Positions 1,159 to 7,231 of a DNA stretch of 19,280 nt are shown in pieces. Every line of letters begins with the position of its first letter. Positions within the stretch are counted from its first letter, which is position 1. Source of the DNA: a virus (taxonomy: Duplodnaviria > Heunggongvirae > Uroviricota > Caudoviricetes); the IMG/VR virus record IMGVR_UViG_2711768037_000017, positions 1-19,280 of that record; one strand, given 5' to 3'. A program made the translations under genes and the position numbers. Under the pieces are notes generated by a model. That model made no database searches and was not told the origin of the DNA. It saw only the letters and a list, made by a program, of their open reading frames with translations.

Positions 1159-1364
1159 TCCACATTAACCACTATCGGATAGTACAAAGCTTTGTGTGCC
1201 TCGTTCATGCCTCACATTACCTGGCAATCATCAAATTCACCAGAACGTTCATAAATCGTCTTTGTGATCTGCTTCACTGTTAGACGTAATACTTTTTGCA
1301 GTTATTTTATAATCATAGAAATGCTCATCATGAGCAGTGAGTTGGTGATCTGCGCTGGTAGCCC

Positions 1365-1373
1365 TGCTATAAT
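1365..1373 (+). promoter_or_regulatory. Candidate extended -10 promoter element (TGcTATAAT) for the acyltransferase gene
   Basis: TG-n-TATAAT at 1365-1373, about 20-30 nt upstream of the first ATG codons of the acyltransferase ORF (1392, 1404). No convincing -35 hexamer. Sequence pattern only. Confidence 0.3.
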
Positions 1374-1391
1374 CCTTTGAAATTTTATCTC

Positions 1392-1946
1392 ATGGTGTGC
1401 ATTATGATCTTTGAGGCGCAAAGTCTTTATTTATATTTTTTGTCTCTTTTAGCCGTTGTGTTATGTATTACACTATTGACACGATATAACTATTTTTCTC
1501 ACATCAACTTTGCAAGTAACAGGTATTTCTTTATAGACGGATTGCGTGGGATAGCTGCGTTCAGCGTTCTTATTAATCACGGCGCTCATACAATTATTAC
1601 CAATGGAGTTCAGCCCATATTTATAGACTTCACAAAATACTCCATCACAGGGAATATGGGTAGCTTCGGTGTACAGATTTTCTTTTGCATTACAGGATTT
1701 TTGTTCTTTGATAAATTAATAAAAGGAAATAATACATTTGACTGGAATAAATTTTATGTTGCTCGGATAAAAAGACTCGTTCCTCTATATATGCTTACTG
1801 CGCTTTTGGTGGCAATTTTAGCTATTATATTATCCGGCAGTTCAGCAAGGCTTAACTTTGTTGATTTTTCAAGCTTCCTAAATTTTTTTGGGTTTGGATT
1901 TTTGGGCACAGAAATCTTCATTGGCTCTTTTAACGCATCAGGATAA
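1392..1946 (+). CDS. Membrane O-acyltransferase (Acyl_transf_3/OafA-Oac-like), N-terminal portion, ended by an in-frame TAA; probable lysogenic-conversion gene, likely a pseudogene
   Basis: Translation contains the family motifs FIDGLRGIAAFSVLINH and RIKRLVPLY and is strongly hydrophobic. Very AT-rich relative to its neighbours. The ORF track starts at TTG 1377, which lies only 4 nt after the putative -10, so ATG 1392 or ATG 1404 is the more likely start. Stop TAA at 1944-1946 is in frame with the next ORF. Confidence 0.75.
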   Translation: MVCIMIFEAQSLYLYFLSLLAVVLCITLLTRYNYFSHINFASNRYFFIDGLRGIAAFSVLINHGAHTIITNGVQPIFIDFTKYSITGNMGSFGVQIFFCITGFLFFDKLIKGNNTFDWNKFYVARIKRLVPLYMLTALLVAILAIILSGSSARLNFVDFSSFLNFFGFGFLGTEIFIGSFNASG

Positions 1947-1952
1947 AATGCG

Positions 1953-2531
1953 GTGATATGGACTCTACCGTATGAATGGAGGTTTTATTTAATTTTCCCT
2001 CTATTATCGATTGCCATCGCAAGCAAGAGATATGGTATGTTTGCCATTTCCGCAGTAATGTTACTTGCGGCAAGAGACTTTATGACAGAATTTGTTTTGT
2101 GGCCATATTTTATAGTTGGCGCCTTAGGTGCATATATATTCAATAAATCTTATGTTAACATTGATGATAAATATTGGATATTCTCATTCATTTCTTTCAT
2201 AGCTATTTTTGTTATCTTCTGCTCTTCCGCAGACAGCTATGGACGAATCAGATTTGCATGCATTTCATTACTATTTATAATGGTACTTATAACTAAACCA
2301 AAAATATTTAAAATAAAATCATTAGTTTATTTAGGTGAGGCAAGTTATAGTCTTTATTTGCTGCATTTGCCTATCATGGCTATAGTAATGAGAACAATAA
2401 ATAATTTCTATAACCTATCGAGCATGTCTACTGTGAATTACACAATTTTGATAGCCTTTATTGCATCTCTGTGTAGCGTTATTTCCTGTATCTGTTTTAA
2501 GAATTTTGAGTGGAGATTCATTAAAAAGTAA
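1953..2531 (+). CDS. Membrane O-acyltransferase (Acyl_transf_3), C-terminal portion, in the same frame as the preceding ORF
   Basis: Same reading frame as 1392-1946 (1377 and 1953 are both divisible by 3). Translation carries the downstream family motifs WTLPYEWRFYLIFP (WSLxxE-type) and GEASYSLYLLHLP. ORF track start is GTG 1953. The two ORFs together are the length of a single acyltransferase. Confidence 0.75.
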   Translation: MIWTLPYEWRFYLIFPLLSIAIASKRYGMFAISAVMLLAARDFMTEFVLWPYFIVGALGAYIFNKSYVNIDDKYWIFSFISFIAIFVIFCSSADSYGRIRFACISLLFIMVLITKPKIFKIKSLVYLGEASYSLYLLHLPIMAIVMRTINNFYNLSSMSTVNYTILIAFIASLCSVISCICFKNFEWRFIKK

Positions 2532-2535
2532 CATT

Positions 2536-2553
2536 GCGGGGCGATGGCCCCGC
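2536..2553. terminator. Bidirectional intrinsic terminator between convergent acyltransferase and tailspike genes
   Basis: Perfect GC-rich inverted repeat GCGGGGC-gatg-GCCCCGC at 2536-2553. On the plus strand it is followed by ttgattt; on the minus strand by a U-rich tract a few nt away. It lies between the acyltransferase stop (2529-2531) and the tailspike stop (2564-2566). Confidence 0.6.
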
Positions 2554-2563
2554 TTGATTTCCG

Positions 2564-4762
2564 CTACGCTATATTAAGATTACCATATGTATTGTTTCCA
2601 AGACCATACCATGCCCAGTTTGTTCCTGATGCAGGAGTACCTGCATTGTGAATCATATCGCCTATATTTATCAGCACTTTCCCAGGGTATGTTGTAGTAG
2701 GAGCAGTGTCTATTCCAGCAGACACATCGGCAAAACGCCAACCACAGGAAACCATATCTGCGTTATCTCTAAATTTCTTAATTGAAAACGTGTATCTGTT
2801 TCCTCTATATATCATTCCAGCAAAACTAGGCCAGTCAATAAGTTGATTTACTGGTGAGTTTAAAGTGTTACTAAACTCATTATTTTCAATAACTGGTTCA
2901 TCGATACGCACACCCGAAGTTGATACTAGATATGTAGAATCAAAGTCGTTGTCAGAAATAATTGGAGCATAACCACCAATTTCACAACCTGTATTGCCAT
3001 GAACAAAATATGACTTATTCCCTCGGTATATAGATTTTCTCCATGTGGGCATTGTTACTTTTACGGCATCAGTTCTATCAAACTGGTTGTTTTCAATCAC
3101 AAGTCCATAACAATATGCAGACATCTGAGTTTCAGCATAATCATTTATGGCATAACCACCGCCTTTAAATGTATTTTTTGTTATTTTAATTCCATTGAAT
3201 GATGTTGAGTAGTCATTACTACCATTCCAGATAATTAGAATATGAGATGAAAATGTGCCATCCTCGTTCTGATCCCCAATGCTTATATTGCTATCAATAA
3301 CAACATTCTGCGCTGCAACACCGTTAGATTCACCTCCTATCTCAACGAATATTCCTTGTCCTGTTTTGATGTTATTCGATATAACTGCACCACCAGTCAC
3401 CCCCCAAGGAGTAATCCTAGACTGAATACTTATAGGGCTTATAAAGTGATTTCTTTCTGCAATTAAATATTTTGTTCTTGCTGAGCACGCAAAATCTTCA
3501 CCAAAAGTATGCCATTTTCTGCCTGTTCTGTACGTTTGGCAGTCAATCATCTTAGCAATTCCATTAAGATTTTTAGTGAAAAATGTATAATTTGTTACCA
3601 AATCAGTCCTTACATTGCTAAGAGTTATATCCTCATTTGGTATAGCACCGTCACCATCAGCATCTGCCATTACAAAGATTCTTGCAGCCAATACGTCAAT
3701 ATCATTAATAGATCCACTACTCCCCTCAAGTGCGAAACCAAACCAATTCTCTTGAGGGGTAAACGTGGTATCTGAAGGTCCAGTTGAAAAATTTGTGCAT
3801 GACTGGTTTAACTTTATACCATTAAATTTAAAGTTTTTGCAGTTGAATAAACCAAAGCAAACACGCTCAGCCTCACCATTTCCATCTGTATTTATATTTA
3901 CATCATTATCTGCGTAAACAAATAAATTATTTTTACCATTAATTACAATTGCTGTTTTACGTATAACACCTGCAGAGTCATGATATTGCTGGCTGATTTG
4001 GTAATTAAACTTTATCTCACCGGCGCTAAAACGTATTGCTCTAACACCACCAAATTTTGATATACAAGCGTTAACCGATGCCGTTGAATCATGCACTCCG
4101 TTAATATCATGTCCAGCCCAAACTGTATGTATGCCATCGAGCACACAATTCGAACGGATCCAGCAACCAGAGCCACCACCATCACTCTCACCAGTTCCCG
4201 CAAGGAAAGCAGCGAGCTCAGCATACGAACCATCCCACGGAACTGTGGGGCTAAATATGGTGATACCGTTGTGCTGAGATTTAGGCATGCTGGCATCCCA
4301 GTAAAACTGCCCGCCGCCAAAGTTGGTTCCTGGTACGTATCCAATTACATTTAATGTGTGATTCCCAGCAGGCTCGCTCATTAAGGTATGGATGTCAGGA
4401 ACATTCTCCATTCGCTGGCTAAACTGATCGGGATCATACTTCAGCACATTGGGAAAATAGAACTGCTGCGAACCATACGCATCATATACAGCCATGGAAT
4501 GGCCTTGCACAGTTACGAACTTGGCAATCTGTCCGTTATATACCGGATATCCGGCAGCGTTAATGATTATTGGTTGCGAAACAGGAACGTGAGAGCCGTC
4601 TTCGTTCTCTATATAAACCTGAATCTGGTTTTCTGAATTTACGGGGTCAGCGTCAATTTTACCGATATAAATTTTGCCATTGGCTACGGCTTTAAAAGAA
4701 CGAGCCATAGTGAAGAGTTGCGAAGGCATGCTTACCACAACATTTGCGGTGATATCTGACAT
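2564..4762 (-). CDS. Tailspike protein: P22-family N-terminal head-binding domain plus divergent C-terminal receptor-binding/depolymerase domain (733 aa)
   Basis: N-terminal ~115 aa ([42 protein letters not shown]...VLKYDPDQF) closely matches the head-binding domain of P22, Sf6 and HK620 tailspikes as I recall them. Start chosen at the internal Met (ATG at 4762-4760) with a GGAG Shine-Dalgarno 8 nt upstream. The 16-codon upstream extension in the ORF track is not present in homologues. The remaining ~620 aa is Gly/Asn/Ser-rich, consistent with a beta-helix receptor domain. Confidence 0.9.
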
Positions 4763-4883
4763 TTCATTGCTCCAGACGAATGATATGATGCAACCATGAT
4801 GTGATTGCATACCGAAATGGTACTATTGAGTATTTATCCAGTAGGTTACGATGCCATTCCACCCAACTGGTGAGGCATCAAGG
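4763..4883. promoter_or_regulatory. Divergent intergenic control region between tailspike and mnt (candidate Pmnt and Mnt operator)
   Basis: A 121-bp non-coding gap between two divergently oriented starts. Contains the inverted repeat ATGCAA-N11-TTGCAT (4788-4810) and AT-rich -10-like hexamers. By position it corresponds to the mnt/arc-ant control region of P22 immI. No operator could be identified with confidence. Confidence 0.35.
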
Positions 4884-5144
4884 ATGTACAGCAAATACGA
4901 CGAGGCGCAGTTTCACTTGAGACTTCCGCATGAACTCCACGCGAAAATTAAGCAGCGTGCGAAGATGAATAACAGGTCGCTGAACTCAGAGATAATTGCA
5001 GCGATTGAAGAATCATTGGCTAAACAAAGCTCTGCATCTGTTTACATTGACGATGCAGAGCGTATGGCAGAACAACAATCTGATATGGTTAAGAAAATTG
5101 TCTTTGATACGCTCAAAGAGCTATATAAAAAAGACAGCAGCTAA
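4884..5144 (+). CDS. mnt: Mnt-like ribbon-helix-helix (Arc/MetJ family) repressor (86 aa)
   Basis: C-terminal half DAERMAEQQSDMVKKIVFDTLKELYKK is nearly identical to the P22 Mnt tetramerisation region as I recall it (DAERLADEQSELVKKMVFDTLKDLYKK). The N-terminus has the RHH beta-strand/helix layout (QFHLRLPHELHAKIKQRAKMNNRSLNSEI). Start placed at internal ATG 4884 with a GAGG Shine-Dalgarno 8 nt upstream; the ORF track begins at 4851. Confidence 0.85.
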   Translation: MYSKYDEAQFHLRLPHELHAKIKQRAKMNNRSLNSEIIAAIEESLAKQSSASVYIDDAERMAEQQSDMVKKIVFDTLKELYKKDSS

Positions 5145-5164
5145 CCATCAGTTACGGAGGATTT

Positions 5165-5242
5165 ATGCAAAGAGATATGCTGAATATTGCGTTCTACATA
5201 TTTGGTTTTTGCACGTTCCTGGTGTTTGCGAAGCTATTCTGA
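5165..5242 (+). CDS. Hypothetical 25-aa hydrophobic peptide (MQRDMLNIAFYIFGFCTFLVFAKLF), possible small membrane protein or gene remnant
   Basis: ATG at 5165 is preceded by GGAGG (5156-5160) with 4-nt spacing, 21 nt after the mnt stop. The product is one predicted transmembrane helix. It overlaps the 3' end of the convergent gp16-like gene by 9 nt. Too short for the ORF track; entirely predictive. Confidence 0.2.
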   Translation: MQRDMLNIAFYIFGFCTFLVFAKLF

Positions 5243-7231
5243 CAACGCATCAGACTTGGCACCCTGAGTCAGGGCGTTAATGGCCTTTTGCGCCTGCTGC
5301 ATGGCTTTCTCAAACGCTGTTGATCCGCGTGGTGTGTTTGCCATTCGGAGCATTGCATTTCTGAATGGCTCGCTCTCATAGGCGCGAGTAAGAAGTCCGT
5401 AGCTTACCGCTGCGCCAGTTGTCGCCGGGTTCATTGCCGTCCCATACCCGATAATGAACGGGATGGTTTGCTGCCCTGTTGGTGTTGTTACTGCCGCTTT
5501 TGCAGCCTGCTGCGTGGATTGCAGGTAGTTTTTCAATCCTTTCAGATAAGCAGCGTCCTGCCCCTTAAATGTGATGCCAGTCTGGTTTTGCAGGATGTTA
5601 AGCTGTCGAAGGAACTGATCAGGGGAACCACCTGATTTCTCCATCGCTTTTCCAATGATGCCATTGCGCATTTGCGCCCTGCCAACACGACCAACTGAGT
5701 TATACAGCGTCTTAATTTCCGATTTGTTCTTGCTGAATAGCATGTTGTTGACAACTTCCGGCGTCAGGTCGCCTTTCATGAGAACATTCTTCAGCCTGGT
5801 ATTCTTTAGTTTCGCCGCTTCGTCAGCGTAGACGGCATTGGCCTGCTGATATTTACGGAGAGTATCGTTGCCAAGATTCTGACCAATGGCACCATTGATA
5901 TCGTCAGTCATTGCCTTGTAAACGCGCTGAATGGCAGCATCGGAACGGTTTGGTAACACTGGTCGCTCACCCTTCACGTCCATTCTGAACTGGCTGCGCA
6001 GGTCGCTTAATTGCTTCAAATCCAGAGTTACCGGACCATCAGGGCCAGCATTGCGAACAAGCTCATCACGATATGACTGAAGTTTTGAAATTGTCTCGTT
6101 ATCAGCTACCTTACCAAGCTTCTGCAGGTTAGATATTTCTGTATCAATCTGCTGAATTGCTCGCGCAGGCTGAATGTTTACTCCAGCCATAGCATTCTGA
6201 ACCTGCTCCAGTCGATTACCGGCGGCACGACGAATTCCTGATGTTTTCGCTTTAAGGCTGTCAATAACAACCGCTGGATCATACTCACCGAATTTATCAG
6301 CAAATCTCTGCACCAACTGGCTTCTCGCTTCCTGTTGCGTTGCTCTCATTCCGCTTGTGCCAGCTAGAGGGATATTTTCTGCTGTAGTCTGCGCCATTTT
6401 TCCGACGCGGGAAGTTGGTTGTAACAGGTCTGTGGTGTGCAGAGGAACTCCTTCACGCTCTGCAAATCTGATAGCCTGCTGAGCTTCTGGCGCGATAGCA
6501 CCACGAACGCCACGATAAGCAGCACCTAATCCACGTCCGGCAGCGTTAATAGCACCGCCAGCAAGTACACCAACGCCTAAATCGGTGGCGAGTGCTTCCG
6601 CATCATCTTTCGCACTATTTGCAGCAAGTGATCCAACTGCGTTTTCTGCTAGAAGGCGAGTTGCCCCCTGAGCAATTCGACCAGCAAGTGTTGGTGCCTG
6701 TGTTGCCGCTCTCTCAATGCCAGCAGGAGTGAGGTAAGGCAATGCCTCAGCAAATACCCTGCCCTCTGTAGTTTGTGGAGTCAGCGCGCCTTGCTGAAGG
6801 CCAAAGTCCTGCTCTAATCCCTGAGTTGTTACTCGTGGCGCTGGTTGATATGTCCCATCGCCAATTCCGAGTTTACCGCCAGCCCAAGCCGCCGCGCTTG
6901 TTACAGCATCTGCAACTGATGCAGGTATGTTTGCCACGTTCACGCCCGCCTGCACCAGTCCGCGACCAGTCTCTTTTACTGCTTCACCAAGATCAGACAT
7001 AAATCCACTTTGCTGTGGTTGTTGCTGTGCTACTGGTTGCTGTGTCTCCACTGGCTGCACAGATGGCAATGGATAGGCAGCATAGAAAGCTTGCTTAGCC
7101 TGCTCTGCATTTTCTCCGGCTTGCGGGGCAACGACTTCATTGAAGTATTGCTCCTGAGCCTGCGCTTTTTGTTCTGGTGCTAACGCCTGATACTGTGGAG
7201 AGGCGATAACATCTTTCCATGCTTTAGCCAT
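5234..7231 (-). CDS. Ejection (internal/injection) protein, P22 gp16-like (665 aa)
   Basis: Last gene of the late operon, in the gp16 position by synteny. Large Ala/Gln/Gly-rich protein. Its start overlaps the upstream gene's stop (TAATG at 7229-7233). Confidence 0.7.
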   Translation of the reverse strand: MAKAWKDVIASPQYQALAPEQKAQAQEQYFNEVVAPQAGENAEQAKQAFYAAYPLPSVQPVETQQPVAQQQPQQSGFMSDLGEAVKETGRGLVQAGVNVANIPASVADAVTSAAAWAGGKLGIGDGTYQPAPRVTTQGLEQDFGLQQGALTPQTTEGRVFAEALPYLTPAGIERAATQAPTLAGRIAQGATRLLAENAVGSLAANSAKDDAEALATDLGVGVLAGGAINAAGRGLGAAYRGVRGAIAPEAQQAIRFAEREGVPLHTTDLLQPTSRVGKMAQTTAENIPLAGTSGMRATQQEARSQLVQRFADKFGEYDPAVVIDSLKAKTSGIRRAAGNRLEQVQNAMAGVNIQPARAIQQIDTEISNLQKLGKVADNETISKLQSYRDELVRNAGPDGPVTLDLKQLSDLRSQFRMDVKGERPVLPNRSDAAIQRVYKAMTDDINGAIGQNLGNDTLRKYQQANAVYADEAAKLKNTRLKNVLMKGDLTPEVVNNMLFSKNKSEIKTLYNSVGRVGRAQMRNGIIGKAMEKSGGSPDQFLRQLNILQNQTGITFKGQDAAYLKGLKNYLQSTQQAAKAAVTTPTGQQTIPFIIGYGTAMNPATTGAAVSYGLLTRAYESEPFRNAMLRMANTPRGSTAFEKAMQQAQKAINALTQGAKSDALSE

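Follow-up and report, generated by a model that had tools for sequence, protein, structure and literature searches.

The window analysed here is a stretch of 19,280 nucleotides (nt) from a Caudoviricetes virus (IMG/VR record IMGVR_UViG_2711768037_000017), which its open reading frame (ORF) map and Pfam matches identify as belonging to a P22-like (Lederbergvirus) prophage, of which it forms the right arm. It carries mnt, the gene of a repressor known from the immI region of phage P22, as an orphan: arc and ant are absent and the divergent neighbour is the tailspike gene. We consider it fairly probable that this Mnt is a functional repressor, which would bind a single operator, located at about −43 relative to its own promoter, and thereby regulate itself and probably also a small ORF, with the tailspike being made by late read-through. 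Selection on the gene, the operator, the uniqueness of this site and the decay of the opposing promoter Pant together make a functional, autoregulated orphan repressor the most likely explanation. The original prediction for this locus had offered two other readings, namely that the former Pant now stands in front of the tailspike gene and places it under Mnt control in the lysogen, or that Mnt is an autoregulated relic.

The predicted arrangement itself, mnt without arc or ant and 121 bp from the divergent tailspike gene, is confirmed by the ORF map, by Pfam and by tblastn of the window. Hereby, mnt occupies positions 4884-5144 on the plus strand and encodes a ribbon-helix-helix repressor of 86 amino acids (aa) with an Mnt-type C-terminal helix and the beta-strand QFHLRL, referred to below as class 3. 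The intergenic region between its start and the divergent tailspike start (4763-4883) measures exactly 121 nt. Residues 7-49 match Pfam Arc (PF03869, 7.5e-15) and residues 57-82 Repressor_Mnt (PF11423, 3.4e-14). As the sequence also matches the solved P22 Mnt structures 1mnt (3.4e-19, residues 6-79) and 1qey (1.7e-8), the fold of the window Mnt can be regarded as settled. The strand residues that the original prediction had given, HFNFRMP for P22 and QFHLRLP for the window, proved to be right when checked on NC_002371 (P22 Mnt, MARDDPHFNFRMP; window, MYSKYDEAQFHLRLP), but the description of the tetramerisation helix as essentially P22-identical was overstated. A hand count on the 1qey alignment yields 20 identical residues out of 29; the changes are conservative and tetramerisation is predicted. 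A ribosome-binding site, GAGG (4872-4875, plus strand), lies 8 nt ahead of the ATG and is kept in most of the relatives aligned from class 2 and class 3. A longer ORF of 97 aa opens at 4851 and corresponds to the annotation of gp14 in phage Sf101. It probably does not mark the true mnt start, since its ATG shares bases with the conserved −10 hexamer (TACGAT) and, read by eye, does not stay in frame with mnt in phage 720R6.

From the changed strand a different operator had been expected, and a candidate of this kind is present. At the position of the P22 operator Omnt the window contains a new palindrome, cATACCgaaatGGTACt (4808-4824), with the core TACC-N5-GGTA at 4810-4822 and its centre at 4816, which we predict to be the Mnt operator. 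The centre lies 10 nt ahead of the −35 hexamer of the mnt promoter (Pmnt), and about 43 nt separate it from the inferred start of the mnt transcript farther downstream. This is the geometry of Omnt and Pmnt in P22, and the motif tATTGAG follows the operator at the same 10-nt offset as there. The exact pattern TACC-N5-GGTA occurs a single time in the window (0.08 matches expected) and a single time in the whole 38.7-kb Sf101 genome. A second operator that could serve as target in trans was also considered; the one extra match, in the coat gene of the prophage in CP026085, is taken as chance. The 134 loci with a class 3 N-terminal domain have 52 distinct upstream haplotypes, and 50 of these keep both arms, TACC and GGTA, without change (individual loci and contigs are cited by L numbers where needed). 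The 5-nt spacer is variable (GAAAT, TAAAT, AAAAT, GAAAC, TAAAC, GTTAA), and the left flank varies too. One of the two arm exceptions, L013, also has a stop at mnt codon 5.

Operator and beta-strand co-vary in three classes. Class 1 (P22, ε34, UPF_BP1) combines the strand HFNFR with the operator AGGTCCACCGTGGACCT and has arc-ant; class 2 (ST64T, ST160, 720R6, Brookers) combines QFNLR with AGACCAC(G/T)GTGGTCT, and class 3 (the window, Sf101, IME10, VSe13, JEP4 and relatives) QFHLR with ATACC-N5-GGTAC, both lacking arc-ant. Hereby, the operator class tracks the N-terminal domain with its strand and not the C-terminal domain: the chimeric Mnt of 720R6 has a class 2 N-terminal domain and operator together with a window-like C-terminus, and that of VSe13 a class 3 N-terminal domain and operator together with a different C-terminus. 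Half-site positions 3-4 are GG in all three classes, and for the measured P22 Mnt half-site GTGGACC position 3 was found to be the most specific (PMC2726951). The palindrome of the window is thus probably an operator of new specificity, matched to the changed strand and predicted to be bound by it. A pattern scan of IMG/VR with ATACCNAAANGGTACNA returned at least 119 loci, among which 88 listed ones lack any mnt homologue at E ≤ 1e-3, so that chance matches are the presumable explanation; among the matches listed, 31 are mnt-linked, all in the usual context, and the scan is uninformative on ant-linked sites.

The Pmnt homologue of the window consists of the −35 hexamer TTGAGT (4826-4831), a 15-nt spacer and the −10 hexamer TACGAT (4847-4852) on the plus strand, with an inferred start near 4859, and it aligns hexamer by hexamer with the annotated P22 Pmnt (TTGAGA-17-TATCAT). 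Scored with a two-hexamer matrix it reaches 7.5, which is the 99.86th percentile. The −10 hexamer TACGAT is conserved in Escherichia, Salmonella, Citrobacter, Buttiauxella, Serratia, Klebsiella and Rahnella. Since the operator abuts the −35 hexamer of this conserved promoter, the autoregulation that the original prediction had proposed is plausible. Mnt at the operator would mainly set the level of its own transcript, which would probably run on into a 25-codon ORF 20 nt downstream; the bound repressor would also block any remaining weak leftward initiation.

The other half of that proposal, that mnt is a relic, is contradicted by strong purifying selection together with operator arms that stay invariant at saturated synonymous divergence. 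The mean pairwise ratio of nonsynonymous to synonymous substitution rates (dN/dS) among 57 distinct close mnt alleles is 0.14. For the N-terminal domain the corresponding ω is about 0.05 against the Salmonella and Serratia versions, with dS near or past saturation. In seven genera (Escherichia, Salmonella, Citrobacter, Klebsiella, Rahnella, Serratia and Buttiauxella) the N-terminal domain, DEAQFHLRL...HAKIKQRAKMNNRS, hardly varies; the C-terminal part is mosaic. If mnt and its site were neutral leftovers of a deleted immI region, the loss of arc, ant and sar and the decay of Pant would follow naturally, occasional pseudogenes such as L052 (internal stop) and L013 (early stop and operator change) would be expected, and the authors of the phage L genome paper leave the remnant option open (PMC8022706). 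Such neutrality is nevertheless very improbable in view of the substitution ratios given above, of the 84 out of 85 close alleles that are intact and of operator arms and promoter hexamers that are kept in at least seven genera, while the adjacent non-coding sequence is scrambled. Judged by these substitution patterns, mnt is under purifying selection and is a functional gene, not a relic.

On the opposite strand little is left of Pant. The best leftward candidate, at 4829-4857 on the minus strand, has a −35-like ATGGCA (4857-4852), a 17-nt spacer and a −10-like AATACT (4834-4829), and scores 5.7 compared to 15.5 for P22 Pant (TTGACA-17-TATATT, opposite strand). As 171 of 38,498 window positions score 5.7 or more, about 0.5 such matches are expected by chance in 121 nt. 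In the type B upstream variant, the commonest sister type (VSe13, JEP4 and about 90 Escherichia coli genomes), the leftward score stays below 4, and no Pant-equivalent candidate is kept in the other orphan upstream regions examined; relatives of type B and of class 2 do not conserve it. Other orphan types show −10-like CAAATC, TATATC or TGCATC, read by eye, at the Pant position, and a separate promoter scan found no leftward promoter either. Judging from the hexamers, the resemblance at this position shows descent from Pant, no leftward promoter is conserved, and the strong opposing Pant of P22 is lost or decayed in the window.

These data bear directly on the first of the two earlier readings, according to which a Pant-descended, Mnt-repressible promoter still fires leftward, so that Mnt controls the tailspike gene in the lysogen. 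The candidate ATGGCA-17-AATACT does lie in the right place; since its predicted start at about 4822 falls within the operator, Mnt sitting there would mask it in the same way as in P22. Moreover, class 2 and class 3 mnt stand, in every context examined, beside the tailspike 5' end or an inserted endonuclease gene, even with a separate arc-ant module in the same region, and in P22 the region influences tailspike expression, with a possible participation of Mnt and Arc (Villafane 2008, PMC2629481). We nonetheless regard this control as unlikely. The candidate is weak and of a frequency expected by chance, and it is not kept in relatives, whereas Pmnt and the operator are. Phage Sf6 expresses the same tailspike module without any cassette, and in about 14 of 90 relatives as well as in Rahnella an antisense endonuclease gene of roughly 0.5-0.7 kb separates the operator from the true tailspike start. 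The tailspike thus does not appear to be under Mnt control; it would be expressed by read-through of the late operon across the cassette, as in the cassette-less Sf6.

The inserted genes encode HNH_3/AP2 homing endonucleases and sit a short way into the 5' end of the tailspike gene. Such insertions were observed in about 14 of the 90 close relatives as well as in Rahnella, Klebsiella-type and other contigs; examples are L010 (2830-3369), L047 (2827-3369), L092 (2636-3130) and L225 (3341-3850). Hereby, a vestigial MSDIT start and its ribosome-binding site are left beside the mnt promoter, and the true tailspike start lies about 550-610 nt farther away.

The P22 role of Mnt, repression of Pant for the maintenance of lysogeny, has no counterpart in the window, as ant and arc are lacking and the hexamers at the Pant position have degenerated. 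When P22 Arc and Ant were used as tblastn queries, there was no match within the window, whose ORF map leaves no room for ant. Rfam returned no family at its gathering score in the window and none at E ≤ 1 in 4500-5400, sar included; the sar site of P22 is the arc-ant junction, a junction that is absent here. The original prediction had also proposed a check of related genomes for arc or ant divergent from mnt. In all class 3 contexts (134 loci examined) the tailspike gene or an inserted endonuclease gene occupies that side, and never arc-ant. Arc-ant modules do occur in the same region in JEP4, E. coli HS, ACN001 and a CUS-3-like contig, there on the other side of mnt, with an Mnt-like gene of their own and with different palindromes. 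Close relatives also carry Rha- or KilAC-type genes elsewhere in the genome, with no matching operator near them.

An orphan Mnt could alternatively act in trans, repressing the ant promoter of superinfecting P22-like phages with the same operator and so shielding the prophage repressor. The Mnt of a P22 prophage does this job against incoming P22. Its role in P22 has been summarised (PMC11016777), and a corresponding function would explain selection on the protein and on its specificity without any target in cis. Yet no ant-linked class 3 operator was found, the coexisting arc-ant modules come with different palindromes and with Mnt-like genes of their own, the divergent side holds the tailspike and not arc-ant in 134 loci, and the operator block is whole in 328 E. 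coli genomes. As conservation of the operator beside mnt itself would be left unexplained, we judge such immunity to be improbable. GTACC direct repeats in the ant promoter of L163, the CUS-3-like contig with class 3 mnt, were examined as a possible Mnt target and rejected: the same repeats are found in CUS-3, which has no class 3 mnt, and they therefore belong to regulators specific to CUS-3. Besides class 3 mnt, L163 (7808-7912) and L103 (6482-6604) contain second immI-like modules (arc-like, P22AR or Bro-N antirepressor, KilA-like) with truncated or full Mnt-like genes. The repeats of these modules are ATGACATCAccATGATGTCAT in L103 and TGCGTACC, as direct repeats 21 nt apart, in L163. The window agrees with the L103 palindrome over 10 nt, at positions 4793-4802 (ACCATGATGT), possibly by coincidence.

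A further conceivable role concerns lytic growth. The gene 16 homologue is the final late gene before the mnt cassette; to get from there to the tailspike gene, late transcription has to traverse the cassette antisense to mnt. Convergent transcription from Pmnt, or a bound Mnt tetramer, might impede read-through and tune tailspike dosage. In favour of this, late transcripts run through mnt in antisense direction and then over the operator, which lies 46 nt from the tailspike ATG, and earlier P22 work, cited in Villafane 2008 (PMC2629481), held that the region limits read-through to control the level of tail protein. The tailspike 5' leader also contains a conserved inverted repeat (4788-4810), which on the minus, late-strand RNA can form a hairpin of 9 pairs with one G-U. 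Its predicted fold is more stable on the minus strand (−9.4 kcal/mol, z −3.1) than on the plus strand (−6.6, z −1.4), and five of seven stem-variant haplotypes keep all minus-strand pairs through G-U or improved pairs. In L009 (Escherichia sp. E1V33) one stem pair shows a compensatory change from G-C to U-A; two inner pairs are lost. The hairpin is, however, confined to the type A upstream variant, that of the window, and missing in the sister upstream type, and as no U-run follows, it is not an intrinsic terminator. No terminator-like site was detected on either strand in 4500-5400, nor between mnt and the 25-codon ORF. Late transcription is antiterminated in P22-like phages, which also speaks against an effect on read-through. 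Taken together, dosage tuning seems a rather improbable function of the cassette.

If the orphan Mnt regulates itself, as we favour, the genes that would be transcribed along with it deserve attention. In the window the candidate is the 25-codon ORF MQRDMLNIAFYIFGFCTFLVFAKLF (5165-5242, plus strand), which is co-oriented with mnt, begins 20 nt past its stop and shares 9 nt with the end of the gene 16 homologue. This ORF has a GGAGG ribosome-binding site (5156-5160), encodes one hydrophobic helix and is open in 79 out of 79 related loci; the ratio of nonsynonymous to synonymous polymorphism (pN/pS) is 0.22, and the changes are mostly hydrophobic-for-hydrophobic. There is no PHROG match for it. 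The ORF is also present, unannotated, in Sf6, although Sf6 is without mnt, and no convincing promoter for it was found there.

In several relatives other co-oriented genes begin at or just past the mnt stop codon: a Rap1a-like gene in L229 and L230 (4258-4620) and L232 (1079-1420), a ClpP-like gene in L231 (4264-4800), a gene for a 106-aa protein of unknown kind in L225, a lipoprotein gene in Brookers and orf59a in P22. The recurrence of mnt with a co-oriented cargo gene suggests that mnt is the self-regulated head of a small prophage-expressed unit. The Rap1a-like cargo, from a type VI immunity protein family, and the ClpP-like cargo stand behind class 3 mnt in other Enterobacterales prophages and are candidates for lysogen-expressed functions. 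A wider, more tentative possibility, which we hold to be rather doubtful at present, is that orphan Mnt, operator and Pmnt form a portable self-regulated module that is kept at the tailspike border across Enterobacterales prophages for small lysogen-expressed cargo and that may gate residual tailspike transcription. If so, its cargo would comprise Rap1a-like and ClpP-like proteins and a lipoprotein, and in the window a 25-residue membrane peptide, and the three strand/operator classes would constitute a natural orthogonal set of ribbon-helix-helix specificities.

Several points weigh against a self-regulating orphan repressor at the head of a small unit. The promoter scores come from a simple and crude matrix, based on textbook hexamer frequencies, and by this measure Pmnt of the window, with its short spacer of 15 nt, stays at 7.5 compared to 13.1 for P22 Pmnt. 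In about half of the related contexts mnt is followed by convergent KilA-N, P63C or arc-ant modules instead of a co-oriented gene, and the role as operon head is therefore not general. Finally, only the tailspike 5' end is a neighbour that mnt of classes 2 and 3 keeps across all contexts, which leaves room for a tailspike-linked role.

The block of about 370 bp around mnt (about 4783-5150) is the minimal, mnt-only form of the "ant moron", the variable region between gene 16 and the tailspike gene: it lies between the homologues of genes 16 and 9, its transcription is opposed to that of the late operon, and of the three genes mnt, arc and ant it holds only mnt. This orphan arrangement is common and is not new. 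The mnt-only ant morons of ST64T, ST104, L and ST160/SE1 have already been described (Villafane 2008, PMC2629481; phage L genome paper, PMC8022706), and mnt directly divergent from the tailspike gene is seen in the records of ST64T, ST160, Proteus phage Brookers, E. coli 720R6, Salmonella VSe13 and E. coli JEP4. The junction of the window is 96-97% DNA-identical in phages Sf101 and IME10 and recurs in 227 IMG/VR contigs. The whole block 4600-5300 is present in 135 out of 5426 complete E. coli genomes, and the operator-promoter block in 328 of them (about 6%), always whole. E. coli genome annotations call the mnt product only "Arc family DNA-binding protein". RefSeq phage records, including that of P22 mnt itself (L005, 3492-3743), name Mnt "partition protein ATPase", a label from PHROG 795/2685 that is wrong, since the product is a ribbon-helix-helix repressor.

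Around the cassette, the window holds an IntS-type integrase gene (1-1158), an O-acyltransferase gene (1404-2531, plus strand) between integrase and tailspike, the tailspike gene (2564-4762, minus strand) and the late operon on the minus strand, which extends from the homologue of gene 16 (a DNA-ejection protein, 5234-7231) to the terminase, where the window ends. The tailspike (N-terminus MSDITANVV...) combines a P22 gp9-like head-binding domain (Pfam Head_binding, 6.7e-66, residues 1-113) with a different receptor-binding domain; its ribosome-binding site GGAG (4770-4773, minus strand) lies 7 nt ahead of the ATG. The acyltransferase gene differs from the otherwise identical gene in CP026085 at position 1945, where TTA is changed to TAA and Leu181 to a stop codon. 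This serotype-converting O-antigen acyltransferase gene is thus probably inactive in the window genome. Positions 1165-5245 differ by one base from the prophage at tRNA-Arg in CP026085 (L095), a 4.83-Mb genome deposited as E. coli DH5alpha, which has a full P22-like prophage at tRNA-Arg beside yfdC. A P22-like prophage is unexpected in DH5alpha, and the strain label or the assembly of CP026085 is therefore questionable.

These results leave the general understanding of P22-like phages unchanged, but they sharpen a minor question from the ε34 and phage L genome papers, namely why such phages retain mnt after the loss of ant. The data argue that mnt is functional and supply a concrete operator and promoter. 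The three co-varying strand/operator classes extend the classic work on Mnt specificity and could be usable as orthogonal repressor-operator pairs.

Compared to immI of P22, the window shares the two-domain protein (ribbon-helix-helix and Mnt C-terminal helix), the site between genes 16 and 9, the orientation against the late operon, a palindrome centred 10 nt before the homologous Pmnt and the half-site GG. It differs in the absence of arc, sar and ant, in the decay of Pant, in the tailspike as divergent neighbour, and in strand and operator arms (QFHLR with TACC/GGTA, as opposed to HFNFR with GGTCCAC/GTGGACC). Whereas Pant of P22 drives arc, ant and partly the tailspike, this strong leftward promoter is lost in the window. 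The Salmonella phages ST64T, ST104, L and ST160/SE1 are closer in layout, with the tailspike gene divergent from mnt, only about 120-135 bp between the two, and arc and ant absent; they differ in having class 2 QFNLR, the operator AGACCACGGTGGTCT, another gene after mnt and Salmonella as host. For their Mnt, "another function or a remnant" has been proposed (PMC2629481; PMC8022706).

The version of the window recurs in Shigella phage Sf101 and E. coli phage IME10, with 96-97% DNA identity for the cassette and 98-99% identity for the protein. In Sf101, gp14 (L001, 3752-4045) is annotated from the upstream ATG as a 97-aa protein and bears the RefSeq misnomer "partition protein ATPase", and the genome paper makes no mention of mnt; in IME10 the gene is unannotated. 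Shigella phage Sf6, finally, represents the same junction without the cassette. Between its genes 13 and 14 it shares with the window the gene 16 homologue (99% identical to the Sf6 gene 13 protein), the 25-codon ORF and the tailspike ribosome-binding region, but the entire mnt cassette is absent and about 70 nt of unrelated sequence stand in its place. Hereby, homology resumes at both borders of the cassette: towards the tailspike gene with its ribosome-binding region (the last ~20 nt, to about 4782), and towards gene 16 with the ATG of the 25-codon ORF.

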